In this document: piece by piece, positions 12,168 to 62,925 of the stretch
Numbering within the stretch: the first letter of the stretch is position 1
Layout of the letters: each line of letters opens with the position of its first letter
Source of the DNA: an uncultured Candidatus Actinomarina sp.
GTDB taxonomy: Bacteria > Actinomycetota > Acidimicrobiia > Actinomarinales > Actinomarinaceae
Direction: 5' to 3'
DNA length: 64,000 bases
Assembly: GCA_902615855.1 (NCBI GenBank)
Contig: CACMQN010000004.1
Coordinates: forward strand, 61,672 to 125,671
Translations under genes and position numbers: made by a program
Notes under the pieces: generated by a model
Told to the model about the DNA's origin: nothing
Databases searched by the model: none
Seen by the model: the letters and a program-made list of their open reading frames with translations, nothing else

Positions 12168-13991
12168 TTACCTTTCTCCTAAACCTAAACGCTTCTCAAA
12201 TTTCATAGATCTTCTTGAAAATACAAATGTAAATACCCAGAAGAAGAATGACAAAAAGACTAGTTGTTCTAAGTTTCTACCAATAAAGGCTACAGGCTGC
12301 GACTGTGCTGGGATAACTGAAGTTCCGATTCTTAGAATATCAAATAATCCAATAATCGCTACCAAGCTTGAATCTTTAAATGATGTTATAACACTTCCAA
12401 CAAGGGTAGGTATTATTGCACGAAGAGCTTGTGGGACTATTACTAAAAATATTCTTTGAAATGGATTCATTCCAATAGCATTTGCGGCCTCATATTGTCC
12501 TTTAGGTATTGACTGCAAACCACCTCTTATATATTCCGCAAAGTAGGCCCCACTGAAAAATGCAGTTAAAATTAAAACCCTTATTATCAAATTAAATTCT
12601 ACTCCTGATGGAAGAAACACCGTGAGCATAACGCTAGCAAAAAATAACCAAGTAATGTAAGGAACTGAACGAACAATCTCAATTATCCCAGTACATATAA
12701 TTCTAATTACTGGTAAGGTTGATGTCCTTCCTAAAGCTAAAGCAAGTCCTAGTGGAAATGATGCATAAGTTCCAAAAATTGCAAGTAACCATGTCAAAGA
12801 GAATCCTCCAAAAATACTTCCGGTAGGAGTTACGAGCATGGTATCAGAGCTTGCTCCTCTAATTAAAAAAGTTAAAACAAACAATGAAACTACCCAAACA
12901 ATAAAAAGCTGTCTTTTGCCTTCTTTAGTTGTAGCGATAGCTGGTGAAACAACCAAAAGTAATAGTAGAAGTACCATTGTTGCTTTAAAGATAAATACTA
13001 CGGGTAAAAGAAAAACTACGACACTTAAGACTAAAAACCCAATATTGATAGGAGTTCTATAAGCTCCTAAAGATTGGTTATCGCTGAATCTAATTATTAA
13101 AAATCCAATAATTCCAAAAACAAGTATAGAGGGGATATCTGCACTGAAAACTGTATTCAATTCAACTAATGGCTTTTTAAAGATCCACGAAAATATAAAA
13201 AGTGGGCACAGAAACCATCCAATCGGAATAAGCCTTGCCATTATTTTTATATCTCTGTTTTTTAAAAGTGAACCGATAAAAAAGAATATTAACATGCCTA
13301 CATAGAGGATTGTCCATGGGATGTAAGTAGTGCTGGCTATTGGAAGAAATGGATCTGGAATTATCCTTTCGCCGCTTGAATCAAGTGATATTGTTGGAAT
13401 TTTAATAAAGTATAAAGATGCAATAATCAACCCACAATATGTCAGATTAACTTTTGCTGTATTAAATAAACTCTTAATTTTTATATTCTTCAGAAAAAAG
13501 AATGCTAAAGTTAGAACCAAGGACGGACCTAGAATAAGCATTCTTACATCTTGAGGAATTATTTCTACAACTTCTATACTTCCATCATTTTGAATTACAT
13601 TTGTGTTTGTTGGAGCTAAAGCAATTAAAAGAGCTATTACTGCAGATATTGTAAATAGCTTTTGAAAAATTCCACCCAAAGAAATAGTCTTACCACTATT
13701 GTAAAATCCTATAGATAAACCTCCAAGAAGTAAAGCAAGACCTACAGATAACCAAACTCTGATCATAGCTTCATCAGGATAAGCCAGTATCATGTATAAC
13801 TTCATATTATAGGTTACTGATGTCCACATTCTTTCAGGATTTAATATGAAGCCAACAATTCCCCTATAAGAGTAAATAACCATAAAACCTGCGAAGAAAG
13901 TTAAAAATGCAGAACTCGAAGAGGAGAATAAATTATCTCTAACCCACCTTCCGTAGGGATTTTCAATGAAAAATTTGTTATCTCTTATCAT
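12168..13991 (-). CDS. Amino-acid ABC transporter permease (AapM-like) with a long N-terminal membrane extension
   Basis: 607 aa. The C-terminal EAA-type permease motif EAANAIGMNPFQRIFLVIVPQALR is preceded by many extra TM helices. Confidence 0.85.
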   Translation of the reverse strand: MIRDNKFFIENPYGRWVRDNLFSSSSSAFLTFFAGFMVIYSYRGIVGFILNPERMWTSVTYNMKLYMILAYPDEAMIRVWLSVGLALLLGGLSIGFYNSGKTISLGGIFQKLFTISAVIALLIALAPTNTNVIQNDGSIEVVEIIPQDVRMLILGPSLVLTLAFFFLKNIKIKSLFNTAKVNLTYCGLIIASLYFIKIPTISLDSSGERIIPDPFLPIASTTYIPWTILYVGMLIFFFIGSLLKNRDIKIMARLIPIGWFLCPLFIFSWIFKKPLVELNTVFSADIPSILVFGIIGFLIIRFSDNQSLGAYRTPINIGFLVLSVVVFLLPVVFIFKATMVLLLLLLVVSPAIATTKEGKRQLFIVWVVSLFVLTFLIRGASSDTMLVTPTGSIFGGFSLTWLLAIFGTYASFPLGLALALGRTSTLPVIRIICTGIIEIVRSVPYITWLFFASVMLTVFLPSGVEFNLIIRVLILTAFFSGAYFAEYIRGGLQSIPKGQYEAANAIGMNPFQRIFLVIVPQALRAIIPTLVGSVITSFKDSSLVAIIGLFDILRIGTSVIPAQSQPVAFIGRNLEQLVFLSFFFWVFTFVFSRRSMKFEKRLGLGER

Positions 13992-20161: not shown

Positions 20162-21370
20162 ATGGTAGAAGATAATTTAAAACTCCTAGTTGTCGCAGGA
20201 AGCAGTCTGGGTATTTATATAGTCTTGAGAACACTAATTTTTCCACTTCTTAAACGTATAGCGAAAAAAACAAATACTATCATTGATGATCTTTTTTTAG
20301 AAAAAAAATTTTTAAATAGAGTATCTTTTGTCGCTGTATTTACTTTTTTAAATGGAATATTGTTTACAGACTTTTCAACAGAATTATTAGACAGTGAAAT
20401 TAGTCAACGAATAATTAGTTCGCTATTGGCAGTGTTCTTAGGTTTATCTCTAAATGAATTGCTTTCAATATTTAATAATGCATCAAGTAAATATGAAGCA
20501 TTGAAAGACAGACCAATTAAAGGTTATATTCAGATCGTTAAAATTATTCTGAACGCATTTATATTCATTATTATTTTTGCAATTTTGTCTGGACAGTCAG
20601 TTACATATTATATAAGTGGACTTGGGGCGCTAACAGCAGTTCTCCTTTTAGTATTTCAAGACACAATTCTATCTTTTGTTGCATCGGTTCAAATTGGACA
20701 AAACAATATCATAAACAATGGTGACTGGATAGAGGTCCCAGAATATGGAGCTGATGGGGATGTAATTGACATAGCTCTTCACACAGTAAAAGTACAAAAC
20801 TGGGATAAAACCATTACAACCATACCTACCTCAAAAATAATCTCTACATCAGTCAAAAACTGGAGAGGAATGTCTGATTATGGTGGTAGAAGAATCATGA
20901 GATCAATAAGTATTGATATCTCAAGTATTAAATTTTTAACATTTGAAGAAATTGAAAAATTAAAAAAAATTGCTCCTATTAAAGATTATCTGAATGAAAA
21001 AGTACAAGAGTTGGAAACATTTAATAACGAATTAGCGTCTGGAGAATCAGTAACAGAACAAAGAAATCTAACAAATATTGGTACATTCAGAGCCTATATA
21101 GAAAGCTATCTCAGACAAAATGAAAAACTAGATACTGAAAACATGACATTTTTAGTAAGACAATTATCACCAACAAACCAGGGTGTCCCTATACAAATTT
21201 ATACATTTACAAAAACTACTGACTGGGTTGAATATGAAAACATTCAGTCAGATATATTTGATCATTTAATAGCAGTGTTACATAAGTTTGATCTGAGAGC
21301 CTACCAAGACGGTATTGTCGAAGCTGCAGCAATGAAAAATTTGCACTTTAATGAGGGTCTTGAAAACTAA
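20162..21370 (+). CDS. Mechanosensitive ion channel (MscS family)
   Basis: N-terminal TM helices followed by an MscS beta-domain (GDWIEV..G..G.V..I.L..T.V). Confidence 0.85.
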   Translation: MVEDNLKLLVVAGSSLGIYIVLRTLIFPLLKRIAKKTNTIIDDLFLEKKFLNRVSFVAVFTFLNGILFTDFSTELLDSEISQRIISSLLAVFLGLSLNELLSIFNNASSKYEALKDRPIKGYIQIVKIILNAFIFIIIFAILSGQSVTYYISGLGALTAVLLLVFQDTILSFVASVQIGQNNIINNGDWIEVPEYGADGDVIDIALHTVKVQNWDKTITTIPTSKIISTSVKNWRGMSDYGGRRIMRSISIDISSIKFLTFEEIEKLKKIAPIKDYLNEKVQELETFNNELASGESVTEQRNLTNIGTFRAYIESYLRQNEKLDTENMTFLVRQLSPTNQGVPIQIYTFTKTTDWVEYENIQSDIFDHLIAVLHKFDLRAYQDGIVEAAAMKNLHFNEGLEN

Positions 21371-22887
21371 CTTAAAACTCTCTCTCTTAAGAAAATAACA
21401 AATGCAATAATTACTATTAGATAATTAAAATAATTTCCAAACAAACTAAATGGAGTTTGTGAGTTAATTGGATTTATGTTTTCGTTTAAGATTTCAGATG
21501 TGAATAAATTTGTCTGTGATAAAACCTTTCCATTATTGTCGATGAATGCAGATTTTCCAGTTATTGCAGAATGTATGACAGGCCTATCATTTGAAATCGC
21601 ATTTGCACGAGACATTAATATAAATTGATCCGACATTCCACTTTCTCCATAGCTGGCTTGATTTGTAAGAATTACAATAATCTCTGCTCCAGCCTGAACA
21701 CTACTTCGAATATATCTTTGAAATGATCCCTCAAAAGAAATCACAGAGGCCAATTTATGTGATCCCATTTGAAATATTTTCTCTTGTTCTCCCCTAATCA
21801 TATCTCTTGGAACTAGCGAAAGGGAAGGGATCCAATCAAGATATCTCCTAAAAGGAATGTACTCTCCAAAAGGAACTGGATGTTGTTTCAGATATTGATC
21901 TACAATTTTTCCCTGATTGTTGATAAATAGACCATAATTTTCAAAATTAGCTTCCCGTATTGGTCTGTCTCCACCAATTAAAAAATAAGAATTTAACCTC
22001 TCAACTTCTATTTGAATATCGGTCAAGACCCGATCGTGAATGAGAGGATCATTGTTAAAACCGGTCGCGCTTTCAGGCCAAATAATCAGATCTTTTTCAG
22101 AGCTAATACTTTTTGTTAAGCTTATATGACTTTCATATATTCTTGCTCTTTCATTATTACATCTGTTTTTTGCTCCAGGACAAGGACTGTTTCCCTGGAC
22201 AATCACAACACTAATCTGTTCAGATTTATTATTTTTGTCTAATAAATTAAAACTGTCGTTTAGTAAAAATAATGAAAGAGGTGTAAATATTAAAATGAAA
22301 AATACTAGAGAATCTTTCAAGTATGTATATTTCTTTTTATTTTCAAGTACAAATAAGACAACTAAAAGAGTCAACGATTGAATGATTAAAGAATAACCTG
22401 TCGGACCAAATGTTTTAAAAATGCTTGGTAGGAGATTGAACGAGGTATCTCTATATCCTGAAATTAAAACTGTTGAAGTTGAGCCCCATGGAAAACCACC
22501 AAATGGAAAGTAAGCCCTTAGTAAATCAAAAGTACTTATTATTCCGATCAATATAAAAAAATTGTTATTAGTTTTTACTGCAATATATTTAAACAGTTTT
22601 CCATAAAATCCATATAAAAGACCCATAAGAACAGAAAGAGGAATCCAAGCTTCGTAACCAATTGATTGGATACCAAATAAAATTACGCCAAATGATAGTG
22701 CTCCAAATAATAGGCCTGAAAGAAATGGTTTACTACTTAATAAAATCCCTGAGAAAAAAAAGAACAGGGATGGAAATATTAAATACCAGAAGTTAAATGG
22801 GGGAAAGCTCAAAAAAAATAGGACTGAGGATATTATGACTCTAATATTCATTATCTTTTTAATGTTAACTCCGAATTTAAATTTCAA
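21367..22887 (-). CDS. lnt: Apolipoprotein N-acyltransferase homologue (Lnt), with Ser at the position of the catalytic Cys
   Basis: N-terminal polytopic membrane domain plus C-terminal CN-hydrolase domain: E (IIWPESA), K (YLKQHPVPFGEYIP), and SVISFEGSF where Lnt has ICYE. Read from the minus strand as gcc tct gtg att tct ttt gag. Confidence 0.8.
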   Translation of the reverse strand: MKFKFGVNIKKIMNIRVIISSVLFFLSFPPFNFWYLIFPSLFFFFSGILLSSKPFLSGLLFGALSFGVILFGIQSIGYEAWIPLSVLMGLLYGFYGKLFKYIAVKTNNNFFILIGIISTFDLLRAYFPFGGFPWGSTSTVLISGYRDTSFNLLPSIFKTFGPTGYSLIIQSLTLLVVLFVLENKKKYTYLKDSLVFFILIFTPLSLFLLNDSFNLLDKNNKSEQISVVIVQGNSPCPGAKNRCNNERARIYESHISLTKSISSEKDLIIWPESATGFNNDPLIHDRVLTDIQIEVERLNSYFLIGGDRPIREANFENYGLFINNQGKIVDQYLKQHPVPFGEYIPFRRYLDWIPSLSLVPRDMIRGEQEKIFQMGSHKLASVISFEGSFQRYIRSSVQAGAEIIVILTNQASYGESGMSDQFILMSRANAISNDRPVIHSAITGKSAFIDNNGKVLSQTNLFTSEILNENINPINSQTPFSLFGNYFNYLIVIIAFVIFLRERVLS

Positions 22888-22889
22888 AA

Positions 22890-23624
22890 CTAAATTATAT
22901 TTCTGAATATAACTACCAATCCTGAGATTATTGAAAAGTATGTTACGGCTTTTGAAATTGCATTGTCAGAGACATCTGAAAACAGTAAGGAAGATATTTT
23001 TAATCCTATAGCAACTGGAATCGCAAGATATAAAAATAAGACTATGTGATCTCTATAAATCTCACCACTAAAAAGCAAAAGACTTAGTGTTATCATTATT
23101 CCAAACGTAAAAACAGCGTTTAACGATGGTCTGAACTCCTTACCAGAAGCTCCTCGATATAAAATTGCAATAGGAGGGCCCCCTACTCCTGCAATCATTG
23201 CAAATATTCCAGATAATGTTCCAGCGATCCATGACGAATTATTATTCCTATTCACAGTCCAGTTAAATAATGTTGCAATACCTGCAAAAAGCACAATTGC
23301 TCCTACGCTTATTGAAAGTAGTTTCTCGTTCAAATTAATAAGGAGCAATAAACCCAAAGGGCCACCAATAATTCTTCCTAGGAATAAGAATTTAAACGGT
23401 TTCCAATCTACTTCTTTTTTTTCACGTTGATATATACGAAAAGCCATAGGCAAGGCAAGTAAACTTAGAATTTGTGGCACAAGTAGTGGCTCAATTTGGA
23501 CAAGTATTGGTGAAGAAATAACAGCAAAGCCAAAACCTAATATTCCTTGGATCGCTGCACTTACAAATAGAAGTATTGAAATAAATATAAGCTCAACAAG
23601 GGAAAGATCAAATGGATATGTCAA
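22890..23624 (-). CDS. TauE/SafE (TSUP, DUF81) family anion exporter
   Basis: 244 aa, about 8 TM helices, glycine-rich TSUP-type repeats. TTG start overlaps the stop of the upstream SelW-like gene (TTGA). Confidence 0.75.
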   Translation of the reverse strand: MTYPFDLSLVELIFISILLFVSAAIQGILGFGFAVISSPILVQIEPLLVPQILSLLALPMAFRIYQREKKEVDWKPFKFLFLGRIIGGPLGLLLLINLNEKLLSISVGAIVLFAGIATLFNWTVNRNNNSSWIAGTLSGIFAMIAGVGGPPIAILYRGASGKEFRPSLNAVFTFGIMITLSLLLFSGEIYRDHIVLFLYLAIPVAIGLKISSLLFSDVSDNAISKAVTYFSIISGLVVIFRNII

Positions 23625-23857
23625 CTAAGTGCTTTTTCCATTAACTCTAATATTTCACCTTCGTTTGTATGCCTTCCAGTTTCAAGTTTTGAATAAATAA
23701 GTTCACCATTTAAATACAATTCAAAAACACCACCTGTTCCTGGAATAAGATCAATCGATTTTACTTCTTTTCCGTATTTTTCAAGTATGTCTTCTACCGT
23801 ACTAACTGCACGGGGTGTATAGTTTCAAACAATACAAAATTCTAGTTTGATTTCCAT
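23621..23857 (-). CDS. SelW/Rdx-family redox protein, probable selenoprotein (in-frame TGA = Sec at codon 11, CxxU motif)
   Basis: Hand translation gives MEIKLEFCIV-U-NYTPRAVSTVEDILEKYGKEVKSIDLIPGTGGVFELYLNGELIYSKLETGRHTNEGEILELMEKALS. It aligns to the SelW CxxU...G.GG.FEV..G.LI.SK pattern. The TGA (23825-23827) sits exactly at the Sec position. A 6-bp hairpin CCGUGC-AGUUA-GUACGG starts 11 nt after the UGA, the typical bacterial SECIS spacing. It is missed by the ORF track because of the TGA. Confidence 0.7.
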
Positions 23858-23892
23858 AAACAAATGTTACTATACGTAGCTGGATAAAAAGT

Positions 23893-23908
23893 TTGCAAAA
23901 ACTTGCAG
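23893..23908 (+). promoter_or_regulatory. TTGCAA-N4-TTGCAG hexamer repeat (Nur/Fur-family-box-like) in the promoter region of the zinc-ribbon/copZ/copA operon
   Basis: Seen in sequence. 16 of 17 nt match AAAAAGTTTGCAAWAAC, which is also present upstream of cbiMN (59968-59992). Confidence 0.3.
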
Positions 23909-23930: not shown

Positions 23931-23948
23931 TTGTGAATATATTCACAA
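23931..23948 (+). promoter_or_regulatory. Perfect 18-bp palindrome TTGTGAATATATTCACAA (TGTGA-N6-TCACA, CRP/FNR-family consensus), 14 nt upstream of the operon ATG
   Basis: Seen in sequence; matches the CRP/GlxR half-site consensus exactly. Confidence 0.4.
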
Positions 23949-23961
23949 AGTGGGGAATTAA

Positions 23962-24156
23962 ATGACTGACGGATTAAAAGCAAGTCAAATTAAAGGTGGT
24001 ATAAGACCTTCAAAAAGTTTTGACCAGGGCAGAGTTTGTAAAGAAGAATCTTGCAATACTCAACTAAGTATCTATAACAAAAGAGAGCACTGCTTTAACC
24101 ATGCTCCTGTTAAATACCCAAGAGTTAGAGGAAGAATTCTTCAAGAAACTGCATAA
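23962..24156 (+). CDS. Small basic zinc-ribbon protein (C-x4-C-x12-C-x2-H), paralog B; first gene of the copZ-copA operon
   Basis: 64 aa. It is a paralogue of 2588-2791 with the same cysteine/histidine spacing and the conserved C-terminal YPRVRG. Confidence 0.6.
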   Translation: MTDGLKASQIKGGIRPSKSFDQGRVCKEESCNTQLSIYNKREHCFNHAPVKYPRVRGRILQETA

Positions 24157-41413: not shown

Positions 41414-41454
41414 ACGCTTATGATAATTGTCACTTTTGAAATAATCTATTAAAG

Positions 41455-41528
<74 letters not shown>

Positions 41529-41529
41529 T

Positions 41530-41621
<92 letters not shown>

Positions 41622-41628
41622 AAGCTTG

Positions 41629-41714
41629 CGGAGGGAGTGGGATTCGAACCCACGGTATGGAATACATACATTAGTTTTCAAGACTAACGCCTTCGTCCGC
41701 TCGGCCATCCCTCC
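41629..41714 (-). tRNA. tRNA-Ser (anticodon TGA)
   Basis: Acceptor GGAGGGA/TCCCTCC, anticodon loop CUUGAAA, long variable arm. Confidence 0.85.
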
Positions 41715-41731
41715 AAACTAAAATCTTTTTG

Positions 41732-41820
41732 CGGAGGGAGAGGGATTCGAACCCTCGAAGGGGATAAACCCTTACACGCTTTCCAAGCGTGCGCACTAGG
41801 CCAGACTATGCGATCCCTCC
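41732..41820 (-). tRNA. tRNA-Ser (anticodon GGA)
   Basis: Acceptor GGAGGGA/TCCCTCC, anticodon loop UUGGAAA, long variable arm. Confidence 0.85.
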
Positions 41821-41847
41821 ATGAAAAGACCTAAAGTATTAGTTTAA

Positions 41848-42306
41848 TTACCTCTTACTTTCAAAGAAAGAGGATAATATAACTTCAGATTCATGGGATA
41901 AAATATTATCTCTTATCTCAACAAAGTGATTTAGTCTTTTATCCTGTGGGATATTGTAAAGTGTGTATGCTGCACCCGATTTTAGATTTGGTGAGCTGTA
42001 TAAAAGAGTTTTGATTCTTGCGTTGACTATTGCTCCTGCACACATGGGATCAGGCTCTAATGTAATGGCAAGAGTGGTGTTTTCTAATCTCCAAGTTTTC
42101 AAGATCTGAGAGGCTTCTTTAATCACCAAAATCTCAGCATGTGCTGTTGGATCTTGATCAATTTCACGCCTGTTGTGTGCCTTTGTAATTAATTTATCAT
42201 CATTATCAAAAAGTGCAGCTCCGATTGGTACTTCATCTATCTCTAGTGCTTTCTTTGCCTCTGCTAAAGCTACTTGCATTTTTTCTATATCAGATTTATA
42301 TTTCAT
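41848..42306 (-). CDS. tadA: tRNA-specific adenosine deaminase (TadA-like CDA-fold deaminase), with Asp replacing the first Cys of the PCxxC zinc motif
   Basis: HAE zinc/catalytic motif (TAHAEILVI) and LEPDPMCAGA where TadA normally has LEPCxMCAGA. The minus strand reads gat ccc atg tgt. Its substrate tRNA-Arg(ACG) lies 320 nt away. Confidence 0.75.
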   Translation of the reverse strand: MKYKSDIEKMQVALAEAKKALEIDEVPIGAALFDNDDKLITKAHNRREIDQDPTAHAEILVIKEASQILKTWRLENTTLAITLEPDPMCAGAIVNARIKTLLYSSPNLKSGAAYTLYNIPQDKRLNHFVEIRDNILSHESEVILSSFFESKR

Positions 42307-42323
42307 ATCCCTAAACTTATTCT

Positions 42324-42412
42324 AGGAGGGATCGCATAGTCCGGTCTAGTGCGCGACACTCGAAATGTCGTGAGTCTTTATAGGCTCCGTGGGTTCGAAT
42401 CCCACTCCCTCC
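42324..42412 (+). tRNA. tRNA-Ser (anticodon CGA)
   Basis: Acceptor GGAGGGA/TCCCTCC, anticodon loop CUCGAAA, long variable arm, GGTTCGAATCC T-loop. Confidence 0.85.
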
Positions 42413-42456
42413 GCTTTAAACTTCAGTTTCTAAAACTCTAGTATTAATATTGAAAA

Positions 42457-48544: not shown

Positions 48545-48563
48545 GAATACTATTTTTTAAAAT

Positions 48564-48824
48564 ATGCCAGTATCAAAAAAACGCAATACAAAAAGAAATA
48601 GTGGTCCAACTAGATCTAAAAAAATATCTGCACAGATGTCAGATGTAAGTGGTCCATCTCCAAGATGGTTTGTAATAACAATGTCATCACTAATGGTCAT
48701 TGGAGTTTTACTTATAGTGTTAAATTACCTCACTCTTTTGCCTGGTTCAGTATCAAGGTGGTATCTATGGAGTGGGCTAGGTTGTATTGGTATAGGTTTT
48801 CTTATGACAACAAAATATAATTAA
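48564..48824 (+). CDS. crgA: Cell-division membrane protein CrgA
   Basis: 86 aa with a basic N-terminus (MPVSKKRNTKRN) and two TM helices. Sits next to pknB as in Actinobacteria. Confidence 0.7.
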   Translation: MPVSKKRNTKRNSGPTRSKKISAQMSDVSGPSPRWFVITMSSLMVIGVLLIVLNYLTLLPGSVSRWYLWSGLGCIGIGFLMTTKYN

Positions 48825-48880
48825 AGGATCATATTCATCATTGTTTTTTAAATGATCAGTTTAATTGTTGCTTGAAAAAG

Positions 48881-49114
48881 TCAATTTTCTACTGGGGTCA
48901 TTTCTTCTTTACAGTGCTTGGGGGGTTCATTAGCAACAACAGATTGTAATTTTACTGTTAGCTCTGTTCCACATGCTTTACATAAAAATGACTGAGATGT
49001 TTCCAGAACATCTGTGGGATCAATTTCAGGAGGCACACTAGCTAGTGAACCAATAGAATTTTTTAAAAATCGGAATATTACAACACCAATAAAAAAAGCT
49101 ATTAAATATTCCAT
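48881..49114 (-). CDS. Small membrane protein with C-terminal CxxC...HC zinc-ribbon-like motif, hypothetical
   Basis: 77 aa. N-terminal TM helix, then CKACGTELTV...PPKHC. Start is coupled to the upstream 61-aa ORF (ATGA overlap). Confidence 0.35.
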   Translation of the reverse strand: MEYLIAFFIGVVIFRFLKNSIGSLASVPPEIDPTDVLETSQSFLCKACGTELTVKLQSVVANEPPKHCKEEMTPVEN

Positions 49115-49299
49115 TAAATTGTAAAATATCTATAGAGAGAAATTATCACAGCAACAACAATCCATGCAATTGCAACGCCTCTAGGGTTAGTTTTTATATA
49201 GGACTCCCTATATTTTTTTTCTTCAAGAGTATCATCTATTGTCTCTTTAAGTTTTTTTAATTCACTTTCAGATAAATTTTCAAAATCTTTTTTATCCAT
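49114..49299 (-). CDS. Small C-terminally anchored membrane protein, hypothetical
   Basis: 61 aa with a charged N-terminus and a C-terminal TM helix. Confidence 0.3.
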   Translation of the reverse strand: MDKKDFENLSESELKKLKETIDDTLEEKKYRESYIKTNPRGVAIAWIVVAVIISLYRYFTI

Positions 49300-49320
49300 A
49301 ATATTAAGGTTACCCTAATG

Positions 49321-49393
49321 TGGAGATGATGGGACTTGAACCCACGACCCCCTGCTTGCAAAGCAGGTGCTCTTCCAGCTGAGCTACATCCCC
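49321..49393 (-). tRNA. tRNA-Ala (anticodon TGC)
   Basis: Acceptor GGGGATG with G3:U70, anticodon loop UUUGCAA, GGTTCAAGTCC T-loop. Confidence 0.85.
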
Positions 49394-49482
49394 TCGCATC
49401 ATATATTATGCCCTGAATTTGCTCGTAAATGAAAAAATTTTAGAAATATTTCGTATTCATTACTAATGTAGATAGAGCGAAA

Positions 49483-49557
49483 GGGCCTATAGCTCAGCCT
49501 GGTTAGAGCGCATCCCTGATAAGGATGAGGTCGTTAGTTCAAATCTAACTAGGCCCA
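49483..49557 (+). tRNA. tRNA-Ile (anticodon GAT)
   Basis: Acceptor GGGCCTA/TAGGCCC, anticodon loop CUGAUAA, GGTTCAAATC T-loop. Confidence 0.85.
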
Positions 49558-49654
49558 CAATTGTCATAAGGGTTTTTCAAAAACTACTGATGCATAATGC
49601 AAGTTTTAGTTGGAATCCCCTCTTTTCCCCCACCTTTTTAAATAAAATATAAAT

Positions 49655-51640: not shown

Positions 51641-51651
51641 TGTTAAAGCAT

Positions 51652-51745
51652 AAAGAGAAGGTTAAGACCTCGGCAACCTGGATGGCTATCCAAGGTGCTA
51701 GAAAATGTGGCAGAAATGCAACTAAATAGTCAAAATCCTTCTCCA
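51652..51745 (+). promoter_or_regulatory. SAM riboswitch (SAM-I/SAM-IV clan, compact variant) in the metY-metX leader
   Basis: P1 GAGAAGG...CCTTCTC, the CGGCAACC junction, a P4-like hairpin GGATGG-CTATCC, and the AAGGUGCUA segment. These match the 3' core of SAM-I (cf. yitJ GCAACC..hairpin..AAGGUGCUAAAUCC). The 3' P1 strand CCTTCTCC can alternatively pair with the SD GGAGAA 6 nt downstream. Confidence 0.6.
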
Positions 51746-51760
51746 AAAAAGGAGAAATTT

Positions 51761-53041
51761 ATGAAGCTTAATTCAAAACTTATTCATGCAGGGTATGATT
51801 CTGATGCTGATCAAGAAGGATCAATAACAGTACCAATATATAAAACAACTGCTTATCAGTTCAACAATACTGAACACGCAGCAAGTTTATTTGGCCTAAA
51901 AGAGTTTGGTAACATATACTCTCGGTTGGGCAATCCAACGGTAGGTGCATTGGAAGCAAGGCTTACTGATCTTGAAGAAGGTGCTATGTGTGTAGCTTTA
52001 TCGTCTGGTACATCTGCTGTAATGTACTCTCTTATAAATATAATGAGTCAAGGTGATAATTTTGTTACAGCGAATCAACTTTATGGTGGTACTTACACCA
52101 TGTTCGACAACATATTGCCAGAGTATGGAATAGATTCTAAAAAAGTTGATATCACTGATCTCAAAGCTGTTGAGGATGCAATAGATGATAAAACAAGAGC
52201 TATCTATTGTGAAACAATCACTAACCCTGGTTTAGTTGTTGCTGATGTTACCGCATTATCTGAGATTGCCCACTCAAAAGGAATTCCACTAATTGTTGAT
52301 GCTACATTTACAACTCCAGCAATTCAGAAATCATTTGAATTTGGTGCAGATATTGTTGTATATTCATTAACAAAATGGATGTCAGGTCACGGACGTGTAA
52401 TTGCTGGTGCCGTAATTGAAAAAGGTGGATTTGATTGGGGAAATGGTAATTTTCCTTTATATGACAAACCTGACACTAGTTATGGTGGAATGAGATGGGG
52501 CCATGATTTAGGAGATTTAAGCAATGTTGCCTACTCATTAAGGTTAAGAACTGTACCTTTAAGAAATCTGGGAGCAAATATGTCACCAGAAACTGCATTT
52601 GAAGTAATGAGCGGTCTTGAGACTCTTGGCCTAAGAATGGATAGACATTGTGAAAATGCAATAAAAGCTGCCGAATACTTATCAGAACATGAGCTTGTTG
52701 AGTGGATAAGATATCCCGGACTTAAAGATGATCCAGCATACGAGCTTTCTGAAAAATACTTAAAAGGTACTGGCGGAACAATGGTCGTATTTGGAATTAA
52801 AGGTGGGAAGGATGCAGGGCAAAAGTTTATTGACAACTTAAAGATGTTTAGACATGTTGCAAATGTTGGGGACACTCGATCTTTGGCTATACATCCAGCG
52901 TCGACTACTCACTCTCAACTAGATGATGAGCAACTTGTTGCTGCTGGGGCTCCACCAGAATTGGTTAGACTTTCAATTGGTATCGAAGATATTGAAGATA
53001 TCATTGAAGACTTATCACAAGCACTTGAAAGTACAAGATAA
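51761..53041 (+). CDS. metY: O-acetylhomoserine aminocarboxypropyltransferase (sulfhydrylase)
   Basis: PLP-dependent Cys/Met-metabolism fold (SLTKWMSGHG Lys site). Start at ATG 51761 (MKLNSKLIHAGY) is preceded by AAGGAG. The track ORF start at 51695 falls inside the riboswitch. Confidence 0.9.
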   Translation: MKLNSKLIHAGYDSDADQEGSITVPIYKTTAYQFNNTEHAASLFGLKEFGNIYSRLGNPTVGALEARLTDLEEGAMCVALSSGTSAVMYSLINIMSQGDNFVTANQLYGGTYTMFDNILPEYGIDSKKVDITDLKAVEDAIDDKTRAIYCETITNPGLVVADVTALSEIAHSKGIPLIVDATFTTPAIQKSFEFGADIVVYSLTKWMSGHGRVIAGAVIEKGGFDWGNGNFPLYDKPDTSYGGMRWGHDLGDLSNVAYSLRLRTVPLRNLGANMSPETAFEVMSGLETLGLRMDRHCENAIKAAEYLSEHELVEWIRYPGLKDDPAYELSEKYLKGTGGTMVVFGIKGGKDAGQKFIDNLKMFRHVANVGDTRSLAIHPASTTHSQLDDEQLVAAGAPPELVRLSIGIEDIEDIIEDLSQALESTR

Positions 53042-54104
53042 AACAAGCAAGTTTTACATTCCACAACTTAAACTTGAATCTGGTGAGCTGCTTGAGAATG
53101 TAGAGATTGCTTATACGACTTATGGAACTTTGTCCAAAAAAGGTGACAATGCTGTATTAATTTTTCATGCACTGACTGGTAGTCATATGCTGGCAGGAAA
53201 TTATAAAAAAGAGGACAATCTTGATATTCCATGGAACGATGAACTAGAAATTGGTTGGTGGGATGAATTTGTAGGGCCTAATAAAATTATTGATACAAAT
53301 AAATACTTTGTGGTGTGTGCAAATTATCTAGGTGGCTGTTATGGATCTACAGGGCCAAACTCAATCAATATAAAAACAGGGGAAATCTATGGTAAGGACT
53401 TTCCTTTTATTTCATTTAAAGATATAGAAATCTCTCAAAAACTATTGTTGGATGATTTGGGTGTTGTCTCTTTAGAGGCTGTAATTGGTCCATCAATAGG
53501 AGGCTTGATGGCTCTTGAATTTTCTCTTTTATATCCGGAGTACGTCAAAAATCTAATATCAATTTCAAGCGGGTATAGACTATCTACAATCCAATTGTTA
53601 CATAATCTTGAACAAGCCTATATATTAGATCTTGCAAAAAGCTCAAACGGAAGAGAAGCCGAATACTTATCACTAGCAAGAATGATTGCTCATAAAACCT
53701 ACATTTCACTTGAACTATTATCAAGTAGAGCAAAAGACGAAAGTAAGTACGATAAAAACTTTCTTGAGGGATTTTTATCTACATCTCAAGAGTCTTATAT
53801 GATGCACCAAGGTGAAAAATTTATTCAGAGGTTCACTCCAGAGTCTTACAATTCCATAATTAAAGGGTGGCAAAATTTTTATATTGACACTAAGGAGATA
53901 AAAAAGTTAGGGAACATAAACGTTTTGATTATTTCCGTTAATTCAGATGTTTGTTTTTATCCTGAGGAACAAGTTGAATTTGAAAATCTTTTAAAAGAAA
54001 ATGGTATTAAAACAAGTGTAAAAGTCATAAATTCAACAAAGGGCCATGATTGTTTTCTTTTGGAGCCAGAACTTTTTGAAAAAGAATTTCAAAATTTCAT
54101 CTAA
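53025..54104 (+). CDS. metX: Homoserine O-acetyltransferase
   Basis: IAYTTYGTL..NAVLIFHALTGSH and a GPSIGG nucleophile (alpha/beta hydrolase). No in-frame start exists after the metY stop, so start is taken at TTG 53025 with a 17-nt overlap. The track ORF starts at 52923. Confidence 0.85.
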   Translation: MKVQDKTSKFYIPQLKLESGELLENVEIAYTTYGTLSKKGDNAVLIFHALTGSHMLAGNYKKEDNLDIPWNDELEIGWWDEFVGPNKIIDTNKYFVVCANYLGGCYGSTGPNSINIKTGEIYGKDFPFISFKDIEISQKLLLDDLGVVSLEAVIGPSIGGLMALEFSLLYPEYVKNLISISSGYRLSTIQLLHNLEQAYILDLAKSSNGREAEYLSLARMIAHKTYISLELLSSRAKDESKYDKNFLEGFLSTSQESYMMHQGEKFIQRFTPESYNSIIKGWQNFYIDTKEIKKLGNINVLIISVNSDVCFYPEEQVEFENLLKENGIKTSVKVINSTKGHDCFLLEPELFEKEFQNFI

Positions 54105-54109
54105 AGTTT

Positions 54110-62762: not shown

Positions 62763-62824
62763 TATTGAGATGTTAATAATAAAATATAGATAGGTTGTTT
62801 ATTCAAAATTTAAACTAATATATA

Positions 62825-62925
62825 ACTAACGGGAGCAGTAGAGCTGAGAGGGTTAAAAACCGACCGTATGAACCTGTTAGGTAATTCTAACGAAGGGATA
62901 TTCGGTACTCTTATCCCATTTACGA
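62825..62925 (+). promoter_or_regulatory. TPP (THI-box) riboswitch
   Basis: GGGAGC...GCTGAGA...ACCG...GAACCTG-TTAGGTAAT-CTAACGAAGGGA matches the THI element consensus (CUGAGA, GAACCUGAUCYGGnUAAUnCCnGCGnAGGGA). Confidence 0.8.

Follow-up and report, generated by a model that had tools for sequence, protein, structure and literature searches.

On the minus strand of a 64,000-nucleotide (nt) stretch of DNA from an uncultured Candidatus Actinomarina sp. (contig CACMQN010000004.1; the whole stretch is called the window below), positions 23621-23857 hold a small gene of 78 codons plus a stop that very probably encodes a selenoprotein of the SelW/Rdx type. The frame opens with ATG at 23857-23855, passes through an in-frame TGA at codon 11 (23827-23825), and closes with a second TGA at 23623-23621. 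Its translation reads MEIKLEFCIV up to the internal TGA and continues as NYTPRAVSTVEDILEKYGKEVKSIDLIPGTGGVFELYLNGELIYSKLETGRHTNEGEILELMEKALS (beginning NYTPRAV and ending MEKALS) to the terminal stop. Retranslation reproduced exactly the coordinates and protein given in a preliminary description of this DNA. The list of open reading frames (ORFs) called with translation table 11 contains no entry for 23621-23857; the gene was therefore missed by gene callers, as that description had noted. Immediately downstream on the same strand lies a gene for a 244-residue membrane protein of the TauE/SafE (TSUP) family (22890-23624; Pfam TauE, 89.2 bits), whose TTG start and the small gene's TGA stop have two bases in common, in a TTGA overlap (23621-23624). 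The lnt gene, encoding apolipoprotein N-acyltransferase (21367-22887, minus strand; TIGR00546, 193.4 bits, above cutoff), begins 2 nt past the TSUP stop. Within the small gene, just 3' of the internal TGA, a hairpin with a 6-bp stem (CCGUGC/GUACGG) and the loop AGUUA occupies 23797-23813 of the minus strand. A promoter-like site, TTGCAA and TATAGT separated by an 18-nt spacer (23869-23898, minus strand; found by consensus scan and not significant alone), precedes the ATG.

For profile searches, selenocysteine (Sec, U) was replaced by C in the protein. Pfam Rdx (PF10262) matched with 68.5 bits against a cutoff of 22.6, residues 3-74 falling on profile positions 2-73 of 74, and NCBIfam TIGR02174 (CXXU_selWTH) with 57.7 bits against a cutoff of 34.2. 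The best-scoring NCBIfam model was NF041051 (SelTWH_Campy; residues 3-73 on positions 1-69 of 70). Membership in that family, likewise of short (seleno)proteins of about 70 residues, was ruled out, the score of 78.7 bits lying below the equivalog cutoff of 88; the protein is related to this subfamily and lies outside it. A sequence search of the PDB returned 2FA8, 2OJL, 3DEX, 2P0G, 2LJK, 2OKA and 2OBK (best E = 9e-9), a group described as having the SelW thioredoxin-like fold (PMC3527542). C8-I-V-U11 aligned with C-T-Q-C of 2FA8, 2OJL and 3DEX, which puts the TGA on the second Cys of the CxxC motif and bears out the earlier proposal that it sits where SelW carries Sec. Thus, profile scores above curated cutoffs and matches to solved SelW-related structures confirm the predicted product, at the level of sequence, as a small SelW/Rdx-type protein of the SelT/SelW/SelH family, as first proposed. 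With the bacterial SelW-like/Rdx proteins of Agrobacterium (Atu0228, 2FA8), Vibrio cholerae (2P0G) and Pseudomonas (2OBK) it has in common the domain over its whole length, the position of the redox motif, the G-x-GG-x-FE-(V/L) and SK motifs and a small single-domain build. The solved bacterial Rdx proteins carry CxxC and have about 105 residues, whereas the Actinomarina protein carries CxxU and has 78. Mammalian SelW (mouse, 2NPB) and MIEN1 (2LJK, matched here at E = 1.4e-6) have a thioredoxin-like fold with CxxU or CxxC at the start of helix 1, an arrangement predicted for the Actinomarina protein too. We know of no bacterial counterpart of the cellular partners described for eukaryotic SelW and MIEN1.

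Over about 18 kb, the window matches several Actinomarina single-cell genomes at about 96% identity. Its low GC content (about 32%) and the adjacent PAC2 and DUF3159 genes, of families known mainly from actinobacteria, agree with this assignment. A scan of reference genomes yielded full-length orthologues of the SelW-like gene in 48 loci, nearly all labelled Candidatus Actinomarina, Actinomarinales or OCS155 (Acidimicrobiia). Codon 11 is TGA in all 48 and in all 45 distinct gene sequences, at protein identities of 60-100%, and the CxxU motif is invariant; TAA, TAG or a sense codon occurs at this position in none of the 48. The preliminary description had taken TGT or TGC in close relatives as a sign of sequencing error, and there was none; nor did frame-disrupting changes turn up among them. 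No Cys version of the gene appeared among the 48 species-level genomes or in the metagenomic clusters, about 77 of which have W (translated TGA) at codon 11. In the bacterial Rdx family the solved forms carry Cys, whereas in Actinomarina the Sec form appears fixed.

TGA is otherwise an ordinary stop in this DNA, in line with the preliminary description. It terminates 9 of the 56 long ORFs of the window, copZ included, and coding sequence under table 11 makes up 87% of the window. Orthologues of DUF3159, MscS, CopZ and the gene at 13988 end interchangeably in TGA, TAA or TAG; the counts for TGA, TAG and TAA are 19, 11 and 13 for DUF3159 and 7, 1 and 27 for the gene at 13988. The genetic code is therefore standard. 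This interchange, together with the TGA that terminates the SelW-like gene itself, argues against a reassigned code in which UGA would specify Trp or Gly. A second form of non-Sec decoding, near-cognate Trp or Cys read-through stimulated by the hairpin, has to contend with the position of the codon, which is that of the redox Cys/Sec in a family with known Sec members, with a hairpin that has the geometry of a bacterial Sec insertion sequence (SECIS) and G at loop position 2, and with a preprint reporting full Sec machinery in the genus (10.64898/2026.04.03.716425). Public metagenome pipelines did translate such contigs with TGA as Trp, SelB and tRNA-Sec were not found in the window or the loci searched, and the clade offers no Cys-containing orthologues for comparison; on balance we regard decoding as any residue other than Sec as very unlikely.

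The hairpin consists of CCGUGC (23813-23808), the loop AGUUA (23807-23803) and GUACGG (23802-23797), and its stem begins 11 nt past the UGA. It is the predicted minimum-free-energy (MFE) structure of the window sequence (-8.2 kcal/mol). The 66-nt region alone folds no better than shuffled sequence (z = -0.54), so the lone sequence is suggestive only and no proof of a hairpin. We therefore rely on an alignment of 31 distinct homologous sequences around the UGA, in each of which the hairpin is the MFE structure as well. RNAalifold returned the same hairpin as the sole consensus structure for this set, and all six stem pairs form in 31 of 31 sequences. The basal pair is C-G in 17, U-A in 13 and G-C in one, a synonymous change in a Pro codon being matched by a Val/Ile/Leu change six codons on. 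A G-U stem pair is replaced by G-C in four sequences, and the hairpin is kept in relatives at 60% identity. Codons 16-20 (CGT GCA GTT AGT ACG) are nearly invariant at synonymous sites across the 45 distinct genes, with a mean synonymous entropy of 0.23 bit versus 1.00 bit for other codons whose residues are conserved. Hairpin codons are also rare in the genome: CGT accounts for 7% of Arg codons, ACG for 5% of Thr codons and CCC for 8% of Pro codons, and their joint expectation is about 1e-5.

In the published model of bacterial SECIS (bSECIS) elements, the loop has 3-9 nt, lies 16-37 nt from the UGA and carries in its first two positions a G, which in most cases precedes a G or U; the stem has 4-16 bp and the MFE is -7.5 kcal/mol or lower (PMC13188914). 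The window hairpin, whose 5-nt loop lies 17 nt from the UGA and whose stem of 6 bp gives an MFE of -8.2 kcal/mol, falls within all of these bounds. Refolding, covariation and geometry thus uphold the SECIS-like hairpin that the preliminary description had placed 11 nt after the UGA. Like the E. coli fdhF and consensus elements, it is a stem-loop within the coding region immediately 3' of the UGA, and its loop of 5 nt has G at position 2 followed by U; unlike the consensus, it has a minimal 6-bp stem and no conserved lower helix or bulge. Eukaryotic SelW differs more widely, using a SECIS in the 3' untranslated region with SBP2 and eEFSec, whereas the Actinomarina hairpin lies in the coding region right after the UGA. 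Could the hairpin merely reflect coding constraint on P-R-A-V-S-T, or serve the RNA in another way, for instance in mRNA stability or as a pause site? These residues are themselves invariant, the single-sequence z-score is not significant and Rfam gives no SECIS match. Protein constraint leaves the frozen synonymous sites at rare codons unexplained, however, and base 3 of the Pro codon covaries with base 1 of the Val/Ile/Leu codon so as to keep the pair. Given also that position, loop and stem fit the bSECIS model and that relatives at 60% identity retain the structure with G-U changed to G-C, a role other than SECIS seems to us even less probable than non-Sec decoding.

A second possible mini-helix, at 23816-23836 of the minus strand (codons 9-10 and 12-13), would hold the Sec-UGA as its 3-nt loop. 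Most species have the sequence GUAGUU-UGA-AACUAC; the window version, AUUGUU-UGA-AACUAU, contains one mismatch. Pairing is seen in 86.6% of cells, and covariation at one pair (G-C 20, A-U 8). RNAalifold passed over this helix, and the distant relatives L057 and L058 lack it. The mini-helix could shield the UGA from release factor or could be coincidence.

Both flanks of the internal TGA evolve as coding sequence. The ten codons upstream are conserved in frame, and codons 3, 5, 6, 7, 8 and 10 show synonymous variation only across the 45 distinct genes (for example, TGT/TGC at Cys8 and TTT/TTC at Phe7), a pattern that points to purifying selection in frame on either side of the TGA and contradicts a truncated 10-codon ORF, the other outcome that the preliminary description had allowed for. 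In the window sequence the first in-frame start after the TGA is codon 47, which makes a downstream-initiated product implausible. Existing annotation handles the gene variously. Public metagenome entries P0001-P0079, from gene calling with TGA as Trp, have W at the Sec position and also run past the terminal TGA into a spurious tail of 6-14 residues; an NCBI annotation of the same gene in a metagenome-assembled genome (MAG) gives only a truncated 55-residue hypothetical protein (P0081); and some fragments already bear the JGI name "selenoprotein W-related protein". That the TGA is a true stop, in a pseudogene, through sequencing error or after a 10-codon ORF followed by untranslated sequence, can be set aside as the least probable reading of all: standard callers do leave the full gene uncalled, the one MAG has only the 55-residue product and Sec machinery was not found in the window or Actinomarina-type loci, but the same-codon TGA recurs across 48 independent genomes and some 77 clusters of metagenomic proteins, both flanks are strongly conserved in frame with synonymous changes, and the part downstream of the TGA, with no in-frame start before codon 47, carries the match to the Rdx profile to its full length.

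Collectively, we consider it highly probable from comparative sequence evidence that Candidatus Actinomarina carries here a Sec-decoded SelW/Rdx-type selenoprotein gene with its own SECIS, because the TGA is conserved in 48 genomes, purifying selection acts on both sides of it, the SECIS covaries and TGA is a stop elsewhere. Several results weigh against this reading. Searches with tblastn using E. coli SelA, SelB and SelD and a marine Sec-type SelD found no match in the window or in 56 Actinomarina-type loci, and neither ARAGORN nor Rfam found a tRNA-Sec in the same sequences. The evidence for Sec machinery in the genus comes from a single unreviewed preprint, which reports selC, selA, selD and a divergent selB in 84 of 84 complete Actinomarina genomes ("Actinomarina, resolved", bioRxiv 10.64898/2026.04.03.716425). 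The same work predicts about five selenoproteins per genome, the most abundant family being an "uncharacterized" one of 78 residues. Because the preprint shows no sequence for that family, we infer from length and ubiquity that it is probably the SelW-like gene. A metagenome search with the pattern MRLT...G-TGA-G-C-K found true Sec-type SelD, on contigs of about 44% GC (one 60%) and not 32%. In the clade with a U-A basal pair (about 40% of variants) the hairpin reaches -6.6 kcal/mol, weaker than the -7.5 threshold, and the lack of an Rfam SECIS match held even in a permissive scan; bacterial SECIS elements are poorly represented in Rfam (10.64898/2026.04.03.716425). Finally, the AlphaFold2 model of the protein is of low confidence (mean predicted local distance difference test score, 57.5) and beta1 is not modelled; the order of elements in this low-confidence model (H15-28, E35-39, E45-49, E52-56, H68-84) is compatible with a thioredoxin-like fold, whose order is beta1-alpha1-beta2-beta3-beta4-alpha2.

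The metagenomic SelD genes merit description in their own right. Contigs L059-L077 are marine, of about 44% GC (L067, 60%), and carry Sec-type SelD (MRLTQFSHGAG-U-GCK...) of other lineages; L062 and L069 were rejected as chance matches to the pattern. L078-L086 carry Sec-type SelD on contigs of about 68% GC, again from lineages other than Actinomarina. Gene calls for the SelD genes of L059-L086 are N-terminally truncated at the TGA. A homologue search with the marine SelD gave no low-GC member among the best 120 matches and a 316-residue group from contigs of about 68% GC. Two single candidates for an Actinomarina SelD were discarded: P0249, the sole low-GC one among the matches listed in an exhaustive representative search, is rare and not tied to Actinomarina, and P0394 has 43% GC. 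In the window itself, a tRNA cluster at 41454-42414 comprises tRNA-Arg(ACG) and four tRNA-Ser (GCU, UGA, GGA, CGA), none of them tRNA-Sec. No further convincing TGA-interrupted ORF was found in the unassigned parts of the window, extensions of called ORFs not being screened.

In the mechanism we propose, the ribosome would meet UGA at codon 11, and the hairpin with its loop 17 nt downstream would serve as a bacterial SECIS, recruiting SelB with Sec-tRNA(Sec) so that translation continues past this codon with Sec inserted. No such hairpin accompanies the second UGA (codon 79), which would bring termination. The product is predicted to be a small cytoplasmic thiol/selenol oxidoreductase of the thioredoxin-like type. 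By analogy with its family, Cys8 and Sec11 at the start of the first helix would cycle between selenol/thiol and selenenylsulfide and thereby reduce a substrate.

The SelW-like gene appears to come first in a tightly packed transcript with TSUP and lnt. The TTGA overlap, in the form (A/G)(G/A)TTGA, is kept in all Actinomarina loci, as is the order selW-like, TSUP, lnt, and an intact TSUP ORF of about 244 residues follows the SelW-like gene in nearly all of them. The terminal stop of the SelW-like gene is TGA in 43 of 43 orthologues because the stop/start overlap requires it. TATAGT, GATAGT or GATACT lies at a constant distance from the ATG in all Actinomarina loci, even with a different upstream neighbour; in the window this -10 box ends about 11 nt before the ATG, implying a very short leader. 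These features suggest a near-leaderless transcript starting at the putative selenoprotein gene. Two distant high-GC relatives have the SelW-like gene, its TGA and its hairpin, with no TSUP gene after it. The operon of selW-like, TSUP and lnt that the preliminary description had proposed is thus borne out for Actinomarina by a real overlap and a conserved gene order, but the link that it drew to sulfur or selenium compounds can be put no more strongly than as a suggestion, because TSUP is missing beside the homologue in those two distant relatives. The pairing of selW-like and TSUP may be functional or may be mere compaction in a 1-Mb genome.

Known gene pairs offer an analogy. YedF-YedE is a candidate selenium pair and YeeD-YeeE (TsuB-TsuA) a thiosulfate uptake pair; in both, a gene for a small soluble protein with a reactive Cys or Sec stands beside a gene for a polytopic membrane protein. 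In Actinomarina, too, the membrane partner belongs to a family that moves sulfur oxyanions or sulfonates and is probably co-translated with the small protein. The families differ, however (Rdx versus TusA-like, TSUP versus YeeE/YedE), and the absence of the Actinomarina pairing in two distant relatives again leaves room for genome compaction. A selenium-sensing leader, in which most ribosomes arriving at the weak TTG start of TSUP, and perhaps at lnt, would first have inserted Sec at codon 11, is a rather doubtful extension of the model. Under such an arrangement, scarce selenium would lead to a stop at UGA-11, about 200 nt upstream, with uncoupled translation and less TSUP. If TSUP moves an oxyanion of selenium or sulfur, this would amount to a translational feedback loop between selenium status and transport.

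The third selenoprotein group of the preprint maps to K07090, and predictions in that work are assigned to the overlapping same-strand gene (10.64898/2026.04.03.716425). K07090 is TauE/SafE. We rejected TSUP as a second selenoprotein gene, since nearly all loci have the 244-residue ORF intact and free of in-frame TGA; the K07090 group may instead be the SelW-like ORF assigned to TSUP through the 4-nt overlap.

Upstream of the SelW-like gene, a divergent orf64-copZ-copA block adjoins it only in some clades and lies outside the selW-like unit. About half of the Actinomarina species have, between the two, an M3-type zinc peptidase gene (HEFGH motif; open frame of at least 633 residues). This insertion, seen in L028-L056 some 2 kb upstream of the selW-like gene, splits two clade groups. 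A perfect 16-nt palindrome, TGTGAATATATTCACA (23932-23947), lies in the intergenic region that orf64 shares with the SelW-like gene, 14 nt upstream of the orf64 start, fits the CRP/FNR-type consensus TGTGA-N6-TCACA and is invariant in every Actinomarina locus. It was rejected as a regulator of the SelW-like gene, as it stays with orf64, copZ and copA even when these are 2 kb off. The 64-residue product of orf64 (23962-24156, plus strand) shows a Cys/His pattern, MTDGLKASQIKGG...CKEESC...HCFNH..., and matches no Pfam or NCBIfam model. It is 88-100% identical across species, compared with 45-56% for CopA, and about 60% identical in distant high-GC relatives. As the first gene of the copZ-copA block, orf64 may encode a metal-responsive regulator.

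Two contigs with the same gene order as the window are filed under other organisms: L018 (NYXO01000052.1; 96.5% nucleotide identity) under a Methanobacteriota archaeon MAG and L031 (NZKG01000031.1; about 78%) under a Marinoscillum MAG. Both are Actinomarina DNA, and their filing looks like bin contamination. Elsewhere in the window, a SAM-I/IV riboswitch (51643-51735, plus strand; 73.8 bits) directly precedes the ORF at 51695-53041, overlapping its called start, and a TPP riboswitch (62819-62915, plus strand) scores 54.3 bits, exactly at the gathering score. Two regions of about 1.1 kb each, 53042-54109 and 48545-49654, contain no ORF of at least 100 residues; the latter holds divergent tRNA-Ala and tRNA-Ile genes.

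The SelW-like/Rdx family is already known and NCBI has curated models for it; the Actinomarina gene is a well-supported further member. What is new is the assignment to a lineage, a SECIS validated by covariation, a Sec form that appears fixed in the clade and the conserved overlap with TSUP. For annotation, a gene so far represented by a 55-residue fragment, a product with TGA as Trp or an "uncharacterized" entry now has a family name and exact coordinates, and the preprint's 78-residue family would gain the name SelW-like/Rdx if the two are the same. SelW-like proteins have long ranked first among the selenoprotein families of marine metagenomes, and the 2008 survey that recorded this marine signal did not assign it to a host lineage. 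One orthologue of the gene described here is listed on 892 contigs and, separately, in 1262 blocks of the assembly collection. These data suggest that Actinomarina, among the most abundant bacteria of the surface ocean, contributes to the marine SelW-like signal. With no Cys version in 48 genomes, they also suggest a fixed selenium dependence in a streamlined genome of roughly 1 Mb. The conserved pairing with a TSUP transporter gene provides one testable lead on the function of SelW-like proteins in bacteria.

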